From Trypanosoma brucei (taxonomy: Eukaryota), in the NCBI GenBank assembly GCA_000002445.1, contig AL929603.2, forward strand, positions 960,001 through 1,024,000: a stretch of DNA of 64,000 nucleotides, given 5' to 3'. Position 1 is the first letter of the stretch, and the number at the start of each line of letters is the position of its first letter. The notes under the pieces are model-generated. The model saw nothing but the letters and a program-made list of their open reading frames with translations, did no database searches and had not been told where the DNA came from. The translations under genes and the position numbers were made by a program. Positions 32,004 through 33,368 of this stretch are shown piece after piece.

Positions 32004-33368
32004 ATGAGGTGTGAAACAGTGTTTACTGTTGGGTTGTTTGCGATTGTTTTATCTCCTTCCTTTCAGGGGGATTTGGGGTCGTTCAAATGGAGCACAGAAT
32101 TGATTGACTGGAGCAAGATTACAGAATATATTGATGAGAGTTATAAGCACCATAACGCTGGTGAGTTCGAGACACTGTGCAAGATTTACAGAATTACGCA
32201 GGCAGAAGCTCCACAACCTTCCTTTGAGAATCGCGAGAAGGAAGGAGAGATTATGAATAAGTTGGAGGAAATGGTCAAGCAAACGGCGGGTGCTGGTGTT
32301 AATAACAGTTCAAGCAAGTCAGGTAACAGCACGACAGCATATCAGGAGATAAGGAAACTGTTTGAGAAGGCGAAAGCGCTGAAGGAGGAAATTGAGGTGA
32401 ACAGGACAAAAGCCTTAAATGCAAGTCGTTCTGCTGAAGATAATATGCTGAGAGCTGTGTATGGCGACGCTGTGGATGTTGCAAGAAATGAGAATAAAAC
32501 TCTAGAGCAAGCCATGAGGGGAAACAAATCACTGCTGTTCAATAATGTCGACAATGCGGGCACGAGCTGCGGTTCTTATGGAGAGAAGTTTGTTGGAAAG
32601 ACACTAATTAATGACTTTTTCTGCCTATGTGTGGGAGAGGCTATAGGTGGAACAGGGAGCGTAATAGAAAAAAAAGTGGAAAGGGGAGATGTTTTTAATA
32701 CACATATATATAATGGGTTTAATTGTCCTTGTAAAGATGAGATAAGGAGGCCAAGTAATGGTAGTTGGACCATGATGGCTGAATTTTGTGCGAGTGGCGA
32801 GGAGCTTTGCGAGCCTCAAAACGTCATATACAACCATACTGAAGCATGGAATGTGATCAGCAAAGCTTGTGTATACAAGAATATTGCATCGAATGTGAAA
32901 ACCTTAAAGAGTGCACTAGCTCACTTTGATTCACTAGTAAATTTGGAACAGGATAAATATCAGGTGAAGGGCATTTTCGGTTATGTGAAAACTGAAAACA
33001 ACACAAATCACACCTGCACGGGTCATACTGCTGGATTCACATGTGTTAGTTACAGTTACACACTTGAAAATGGTGGGATTCCATGGTACAATCACCTTAC
33101 TAACGCTACTGAGCAACTGCAAGAAATGGATGAATATGCCAAAGAGGCTGACAGTCATCTTCATGAGTTGGAAGAATACCAACATGAGGCAGAGGAAATA
33201 TTTCTTGAGGTGAAGCTAGGAGGTGATGCGGAGCTATGGAAAAGCAACCGAGGTAAGGGTGATGGTGAAGGTGATAATACAGTGGTAGATAATGATGGAC
33301 TTACTCATTTGAATATTGCAACTGGGGGTTTTACATTATTAGTTTTATCTCTTATTTGTACGCTTTAG
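32004..33368 (+). CDS. Family B putative GPI-anchored surface glycoprotein, copy B1 (454 aa)
   Basis: Signal peptide (FTVGLFAIVLSPSFQG). Cys motifs (FETLC, CGSYG, FFCLCVGEA, FNCPCKDE). Many N-x-S/T sites. The C-terminal hydrophobic tail GGFTLLVLSLICTL is typical of a GPI signal. Paralog at 58092..59468. Confidence 0.8.
   Translation: MRCETVFTVGLFAIVLSPSFQGDLGSFKWSTELIDWSKITEYIDESYKHHNAGEFETLCKIYRITQAEAPQPSFENREKEGEIMNKLEEMVKQTAGAGVNNSSSKSGNSTTAYQEIRKLFEKAKALKEEIEVNRTKALNASRSAEDNMLRAVYGDAVDVARNENKTLEQAMRGNKSLLFNNVDNAGTSCGSYGEKFVGKTLINDFFCLCVGEAIGGTGSVIEKKVERGDVFNTHIYNGFNCPCKDEIRRPSNGSWTMMAEFCASGEELCEPQNVIYNHTEAWNVISKACVYKNIASNVKTLKSALAHFDSLVNLEQDKYQVKGIFGYVKTENNTNHTCTGHTAGFTCVSYSYTLENGGIPWYNHLTNATEQLQEMDEYAKEADSHLHELEEYQHEAEEIFLEVKLGGDAELWKSNRGKGDGEGDNTVVDNDGLTHLNIATGGFTLLVLSLICTL

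Follow-up and report, generated by a model that had tools for sequence, protein, structure and literature searches.

Two chromosome-internal ESAG2 genes of Trypanosoma brucei are probable mosaics of blocks shared with dispersed paralogs

The window analysed here, a 64,000-nucleotide stretch of chromosome 1 of Trypanosoma brucei brucei TREU927, carries two copies of the gene for the bloodstream-stage surface glycoprotein ESAG2, which we call B1 and B2. These two genes are very probably mosaics that arose by segmental gene conversion or recombination among dispersed ESAG2 paralogs. Three observations carry this conclusion: synonymous divergence between B1 and B2 is heterogeneous along the gene, blocks occur at different loci in mutually incompatible combinations, and the best-match partners of each copy switch along its length.

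Results

Identity and location of the two ESAG2 genes

B1 and B2 are the annotated chromosome-1 copies of ESAG2. Exact-sequence look-up returned two proteins that both carry the name "ESAG2 protein, putative", and the closest database relatives were likewise T. brucei ESAG2 proteins. The two copies are 84% identical to each other (BLASTP) and 67-81% identical to other full-length ESAG2 cluster representatives; both match the Pfam family VSG_B (PF13206; E = 1e-27 for B1 and 5e-27 for B2). Hydrophobic stretches at the N-terminus (MRCETVFTVGLFAIVLSPSFQG) and in the C-terminal tail (GGFTLLVLSLICTL) were read from the sequences by eye rather than with a predictor; the glycosylphosphatidylinositol (GPI) insertion signal of an expression-site copy of ESAG2 has been examined experimentally in reporter fusions (PMC11298655). 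Each gene lies in a 5.2-kb cassette, consisting of an upstream spacer, ESAG2, ESAG11 and ESAG1, that is duplicated in the window with 89.3% identity between the copies (self-BLAST). The Tb927 identifiers below were taken from PMC2837033 and assigned by gene order and name.

32004..33368, + strand: B1, ESAG2, 454 aa; CAJ16695.1 / XP_001219180.1; Tb927.1.4890 by order and name; class-B VSG-like surface glycoprotein, putatively GPI-anchored
58092..59468, + strand: B2, ESAG2, 458 aa; CAJ16716.1 / XP_001219200.1; Tb927.1.5100 by order and name
30588..35771, + strand: cassette 1, upstream spacer, ESAG2, ESAG11, ESAG1 (self-BLAST, Pfam, source names)
56693..61859, + strand: cassette 2, upstream spacer, ESAG2, ESAG11, ESAG1 (self-BLAST, Pfam, source names)

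Bloodstream expression sites have the same ESAG2-ESAG11-ESAG1 order (PMC2567434) that was present in both cassettes. Neither B1 nor B2, however, lies in a telomeric VSG expression site, the location that defines an ESAG in the strict sense. Since housekeeping-type genes (PRMT, SET/MYND, Vps39-like) are found upstream of the cassettes, together with a phospholipase A1 gene, and ESAG7/6 were not found among the window open reading frames (ORFs) examined (no search was aimed at 70-bp repeats or a downstream VSG), B1 and B2 are chromosome-internal, strictly non-expression-site ("GRESAG2"-type) copies.

Differences between B1 and B2 are clustered in blocks

The clustering of the differences between B1 and B2 exceeds chance. 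Their longest identical runs measured 131, 117, 101 and 96 nucleotides, and a uniform placement of the differences would be expected to leave a longest run of 47 nucleotides on average (99.9th percentile, 99). At the protein level, the longest identical runs were 47, 43, 38, 38 and 37 residues. The original prediction, made from the DNA letters of this stretch, had noted such long runs, which we recovered, and had also described the last ~130 residues as identical, which did not hold: 117 of 130 residues (90%) agreed, and complete identity was confined to the last 38, including the putative GPI signal.

The most conspicuous block is a patch of about 22 codons, placed by the original prediction between the conserved motifs FFCLCVGEA and YNGFNCPCKDE, where we indeed found IGGTGSVIEKKVERGDVFNTHI in B1 replaced by KKVQIKKSVAKDEYDPTYDGV in B2, with identity in 5 of 26 aligned columns. 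The mature N-terminus also differed as sharply as had been proposed (13 of 27 residues identical over aa 26-52), whereas residues 53-212 were 94% identical. The cassette's non-coding DNA was more conserved than these coding patches, again as claimed: identity between the cassettes reached 94.7% in the upstream region, 97.2% in the ESAG2-ESAG11 spacer and 96.2% in the ESAG11-ESAG1 spacer, against 57-61% in 90-nucleotide windows of the patches. In addition, three variable blocks that had escaped the earlier description were detected at aa 253-284, at aa 323-352 and across the 5' untranslated region (UTR) and start codon (31916-32035). Because this 5' block is swapped, B2 begins at an upstream ATG within it and has five extra N-terminal residues, MNRIT (58092-58106). 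The blocks are listed here with the proportions of synonymous (pS) and nonsynonymous (pN) differences, obtained by Nei-Gojobori counting, and with the AlphaFold2 predicted local distance difference test score (pLDDT).

31916..32035, + strand: swapped block, 5' UTR and start codon; 62-83% identity between B1 and B2
32076..32159, + strand: B1 divergent mature N-terminal segment, aa 25-52; 48% aa identity; pS 0.84 vs 0.15 in the remainder
58179..58262, + strand: B2 divergent mature N-terminal segment, aa 30-57 (BLASTP alignment, pS, best-match comparison)
32640..32710, + strand: B1 hypervariable patch, aa 213-236, IGGTGSVIEKKVERGDVFNTHI; 19% aa identity to B2; pLDDT <50 at 215-240
58743..58808, + strand: B2 hypervariable patch, KKVQIKKSVAKDEYDPTYDGV; 100% nucleotide identity to T. 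b. gambiense chromosome 3 gene P0002; pLDDT <50 at 211-241
32760..32855, + strand: variable block, B1 aa 253-284, around two conserved cysteines; 75-82% nucleotide identity; pS 0.41
32970..33059, + strand: variable block, B1 aa 323-352; pS 0.38, pN 0.12

Synonymous divergence rises together with protein divergence

Between B1 and B2, pS was 0.84 in the N-terminal block, 0.78 in the patch (saturated) and 0.15 in the remainder, with corresponding pN/pS ratios of 0.37, 0.64 and 0.31; raw proportions were used for the patch, where the Jukes-Cantor (JC)-corrected synonymous rate (dS) is undefined because of saturation. Among codons that specify the same amino acid in both copies, 25% differed synonymously in divergent protein surroundings versus 3.5% where the surroundings showed no divergence (permutation p <= 5e-5). 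Since selection at the protein level cannot raise synonymous divergence locally, these blocks are of different ancestry.

Constraint on the blocks was assessed in a codon alignment of eight family sequences, from which the TREU927 paralogs P0004, P0006 and P0011 were left out. The pooled pN/pS of the patch was 0.76, and its JC-corrected ratio of nonsynonymous to synonymous rates (dN/dS) averaged ~1.0 in 10 unsaturated pairs, compared with 0.09-0.21 in the conserved blocks. The ratio was thus raised relative to the flanks, as the original prediction had anticipated, though not above 1. No dN/dS above 1 was found at patch codons with counting methods on a doubtful alignment, a setting in which weak selection at single sites is possible. 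The patch ratio fits relaxed constraint, possibly with some diversifying selection, two states that counting cannot separate.

These values bear on an alternative in which local positive (diversifying) selection acted by point substitution on a recent duplicate, with immune or ligand pressure focused on the patch and the N-terminus. Such pressure would agree with the patch having the highest dN/dS in the gene, with published codon models that detected diversifying selection at some ESAG2 sites (PMC2533676) and with the presence of ESAG2 on the cell-body surface (PMC4587319). However, synonymous divergence is up 5-fold in the very same blocks, which protein selection cannot cause, and each patch type is 100% conserved in nucleotide sequence between subspecies and chromosomes, arguing against recent rapid change within a type; nor does the ratio exceed 1. 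We therefore regard this alternative as unlikely, and selection as the sole cause is largely refuted by the synonymous heterogeneity. Accordingly, of the two processes named in the original prediction, diversifying selection found no support in a ratio above 1, whereas patch conversion stood up: pS rises with pN, patch types recur and blocks reassort.

The same blocks recur in different combinations at other ESAG2 loci

Recurrence and reassortment were seen in a nucleotide comparison of nine sequences from three assemblies. The N-terminal block and patch of B1 were 97-100% identical to those of a fragment at the end of T. b. gambiense chromosome 7 (P0014) and equally close to those of the T. 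b. equiperdum chromosome 1 copy, which is syntenic with B2; the B1 patch alone was 100% identical to both. The N-terminal block and patch of B2 were 97-100% identical to those of a T. b. gambiense chromosome 3 gene (P0002). Conversely, the 5' start block paired in the opposite manner, with B1 resembling the gambiense chromosome 3 and equiperdum sequences and B2 resembling the gambiense chromosome 7 fragment, which also has the MNRIT extension. Because the start block pairs opposite to the N-terminal block, all four combinations of these two adjacent blocks exist.

Partners also switched further downstream. The T. b. equiperdum copy is of B1 type up to ~32926 and of B2 type beyond that point. 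In the aa 253-284 block, B1 matched T. b. equiperdum and B2 was unique among the compared sequences; in the aa 323-352 block, B2 matched T. b. equiperdum at 98-100% and B1 was unique among them. The protein encoded by gambiense P0002 combines a B2-type 5' part with a 3' end identical to that of the TREU927 paralog P0006.

We considered whether the T. b. gambiense matches might be orthologs of the window loci and rejected this, as their sites differ (P0014 at the end of chromosome 7, P0002 on chromosome 3 and P0007 at another chromosome 1 locus beside a calpain-like gene); they represent paralogous loci. The T. b. equiperdum ESAG2 that is syntenic with B2 (CM010672.1 piece L004, 9721-11093) matches in three frames, and only a 217-aa product is annotated there; it is either a pseudogene or a product of indel errors in a long-read assembly.

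No part of the family varies more than the patch, a predicted unstructured region

Among 16 aligned ESAG2-family sequences, the patch, delimited by CVGEA and YNGFNCPC, ranged from 10 to 52 residues. It is usually K/E-rich and contains an NVT sequon in some members; it was not found in the single T. congolense VSG included in the family alignment. Mean pairwise distance was higher in the patch (0.73) than in any other segment, with 0.59 in the N-terminal segment and 0.08-0.25 in the helices. The patch itself looks modular in these alignments, with 5' modules (INVT.., IDIVKKEERR.., KKVQ..) and 3' modules (..GKYSDSV, ..DYNLTMIEI, ..YDGV) occurring in differing combinations. Distances in the N-terminal segment and the patch correlated (r = 0.61). 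A specific coupling of N-terminal and patch types was nevertheless unsupported: the whole 5' half (aa 26-284) has a common phylogenetic signal, the N-terminal segment correlated at least as well with other 5'-half blocks as with the patch, and in one sequence (P0001) an N-terminus resembling that of B1 occurs together with another patch.

AlphaFold2 models of B1 and B2 had moderate mean pLDDT values (65 and 64, respectively). Long helices were predicted confidently at residues 54-96, 106-153 and 360-404 (pLDDT ~85-96). Values below 50 were obtained from the N-terminus to about residue 49, at 97-106 and in the patch, a low-confidence coil in both models, as well as in the Cys-rich stretch after the patch and in the linker before the putative GPI signal. 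The best Foldseek matches were the class-B VSGs VSG615, mVSG1954, VSG11 and VSG3 (probability 1.0; target-normalised TM-score 0.54-0.60), and a profile search aligned the CLC motif and the C-terminal third to VSG615. With a predicted three-helix bundle that matches solved structures, B1 and B2 would thus adopt the class-B VSG fold. In that fold, it is the segment between helices 1 and 2 that makes up the bottom lobe (PMC10501684); by this topology, the region between helices 2 and 3, including the patch, would form the membrane-distal top lobe, and the chain before helix 1 would also start at the top. It is therefore plausible, on these models, that the patch is a surface-exposed loop.

The length variation and apparent disorder of the patch raise a second alternative, namely that an unconstrained, disordered loop changed by neutral drift and replication slippage while the loci exchanged nothing. 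The range of patch lengths, the purine-rich K/E low-complexity runs within it, its low pLDDT and a dN/dS near 1 would all fit this explanation. It leaves unexplained, however, the N-terminal, aa 253-284 and aa 323-352 blocks, which have no indels, lower dN/dS and pS of 0.4-0.8, as well as the identical patches in non-syntenic loci and the four-combination pattern. We consider it quite unlikely as a full account; since patch types are identical between loci with differing flanks, slippage is at most an added source of patch length variation.

Finally, it is extremely improbable that the pattern is artificial, stemming from a frameshift, from a sequencing error or from chimeric assembly in this repetitive region with its two 5.2-kb cassettes and extra ESAG1. 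Such an origin is refuted because both patch versions recur independently in the assemblies of T. b. gambiense and T. b. equiperdum; moreover, both ORFs are intact, both proteins are in the reference annotation, and the frameshift that the original prediction had listed as a possible cause of the patch difference is ruled out by stop codons in the other frames and the absence of cross-frame similarity.

Discussion

Segmental exchange as the source of the mosaic pattern

Segmental conversion or recombination among dispersed paralogs would account for these features as follows. Loci would be kept alike in their conserved stretches, among them the CVGEA and YNGFNCPC motifs on either side of the patch, while old, discrete types of the variable blocks would travel from locus to locus as units. 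The patch would be the most variable of these blocks, an insertion of varying length that is mostly charged, is predicted to lack structure and appears near neutral in its constraint at the protein level. The conversion mechanism and its direction, the surface exposure of the patch and any role in antigenic or ligand diversity are points that we infer.

Several considerations weigh against this explanation. The case for mosaicism comes from block matches and synonymous counts rather than from a formal test (GARD, 3SEQ or PHI), the set of compared sequences is small, and indel errors in the assembly may affect the T. b. equiperdum copy. The B1/B2 alignment inside the patch is doubtful, so that pS there is no reliable measure. 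The top-lobe placement derives from predicted secondary structure and published topology, not from coordinates, and the models are moderate (pLDDT 64-65). As to the direction and timing of exchange, old duplicates with homogenised flanks would look the same as young duplicates with foreign patches.

A more far-reaching and rather doubtful possibility is that ESAG2 presents a single membrane-distal face built jointly from its N-terminal segment and the top-lobe patch. The discrete types of this face would be old polymorphisms, common to the subspecies, that balancing selection (immune or host-ligand) preserves and that conversion transfers between internal and telomeric loci. The 100% conservation of each patch type between subspecies lends this limited support. 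If it were true, ESAG2 would come in a small set of forms with different binding or antigenic faces, much like the variants of the ESAG6/7 transferrin receptor.

Relation to known systems

B1 and B2 resemble the b-type-VSG-derived ESAG2/GRESAG2 family in their exact matches, VSG_B domain and gene order, and their hydrophobic ends look like a signal peptide and a GPI signal. They differ from expression-site ESAG2, which is telomeric, in being chromosome-internal, downstream of housekeeping genes and phospholipase A1. Both genes are reportedly strongly up-regulated in bloodstream forms (634-fold for Tb927.1.4890 and 271-fold for Tb927.1.5100; PMC2837033). Tagged ESAG2 from the active expression site localised to the cell-body membrane (PMC4587319), and ESAG2 carries heavy N-glycosylation (PMC11236118). 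The literature cited here assigns ESAG2 neither a ligand nor a biochemical function.

Mosaicism has been described for telomeric ESAG families, which are chimaeras with GARD recombination tracts of 90-687 bp (Hertz-Fowler et al. 2008, PMC2567434), and for ESAG2 in particular, with type A/B recombinants, a distinct N-terminal domain at residues 1-54 and some diversifying sites (Young et al. 2008, PMC2533676). The pattern in B1 and B2 is alike in its chimaeric genes, short tracts and N-terminal types. The published analyses concerned telomeric copies in gap-stripped alignments, whereas the present loci are chromosome-internal, and the matches span different chromosomes and subspecies; the length-variable patch was probably left out of the gap-stripped tests. 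Segmental VSG mosaic formation is a named comparator for the block exchange.

The ESAG6/ESAG7 transferrin receptor is likewise VSG-derived, with a short, copy-specific hypervariable surface region (PMC2533676, PMC2567434). Its origin is an a-type VSG, its ligand is known and its hypervariable sites lie on an exposed surface; unlike these, the ESAG2 patch varies in length, is predicted to be disordered and showed no dN/dS above 1 here. ESAG2 shares a fold match with class-B VSG N-terminal domains, and its conserved CLC and C...C motifs align to VSG615. In contrast to class-B VSGs, it is without a VSG-type C-terminal domain, has the patch as an extra insertion after the CLC motif and appears to have only a short segment where they have the bottom lobe.

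The genes are annotated, the mechanism is the one published for the ESAG families in 2008, and this is no new kind of system. Our modest additions are that blocks pass between the internal cassettes of chromosome 1 and loci on other chromosomes, that the locus syntenic with B2 has a different block combination in T. b. equiperdum and that the length-variable patch is the most variable ESAG2 element. Internal chromosome-1 cassettes share the segmental exchange already described for telomeric ESAGs. Anyone planning ligand or antibody experiments on ESAG2 should be helped by this map of its fixed and variable parts: the N-terminus and the loop after CVGEA are free to vary, while the conserved CTGHTAGFTC loop is fixed, as are the helices.

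Cassette neighbours and other features of the window

The genes that follow ESAG2 in the cassettes are listed below. Exact-sequence look-up gave the accessions CAJ16696.1 and CAJ16717.1 for the two ESAG11 copies and CAJ16693.1 and CAJ16697.1 for two ESAG1 copies; the copy at 60872-61855 was outside this look-up.

33544..34662, + strand: ESAG11, cassette 1; exact match to annotated ESAG11; partner at 59645-60739
34793..35767, + strand: ESAG1, cassette 1; Pfam ESAG1, E = 3e-109; partner at 60872-61855; further copy at 29771-30757

The ESAG11 copies have a divergent block at aa 204-248, with pS of 0.48-0.56 versus 0-0.17 in most other windows, and the 3' half of ESAG1 diverges between the cassettes with pS of 0.66-0.85 over aa 166-315. 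As in ESAG2, pS and pN jump jointly in ESAG11 (aa 204-248) and ESAG1 (aa 151-315); the process acts on the whole cassette. By these comparisons, ESAG1 appears at least as mosaic as ESAG2. The ESAG11 copies also differ in the length of a Gly-Ser repeat (~34040-34310), GCGSGSGSGSDGKHE versus GCGSDGKRE. The ESAG1 copies at 29771-30757 and 34793-35767 show zero synonymous differences in windows from aa 61 to ~210, after which pS rises up to 0.73.

The phospholipase A1 gene (26718-27620, + strand) lies directly upstream of the first ESAG1. One source gives its T. b. gambiense cluster mate, CBH09169.1, the name "ESAG protein / ESAG1", which looks like an annotation slip. Between the cassettes, a gene for a 758-aa leucine-rich-repeat protein (47735-50011, + strand) is conserved at the syntenic position in T. 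b. equiperdum, at the start of piece L004. A 345-aa ORF in the same interval (53265-54302, + strand) matches VSG_B (E = 6.5e-28); it was tried as a third ESAG2 and rejected, its similarity to B1 being at motif level only, and it looks like a separate, short b-type VSG-like gene. A 344-aa counterpart occupies the syntenic position in T. b. equiperdum (CM010672.1 piece L004, 4941-5975).

GC skew is negative (-0.06 to -0.13) at 36000-42000 and positive across the remaining window, and ORFs of at least 110 aa within 36000-47000 gave no Pfam match. The 36000-42000 segment may be a degenerate repeat, a retroelement or a coding-strand change. The first part of the window (1-2000) is markedly AT-rich, with a GC content of 0.29 versus 0.37-0.50 elsewhere.

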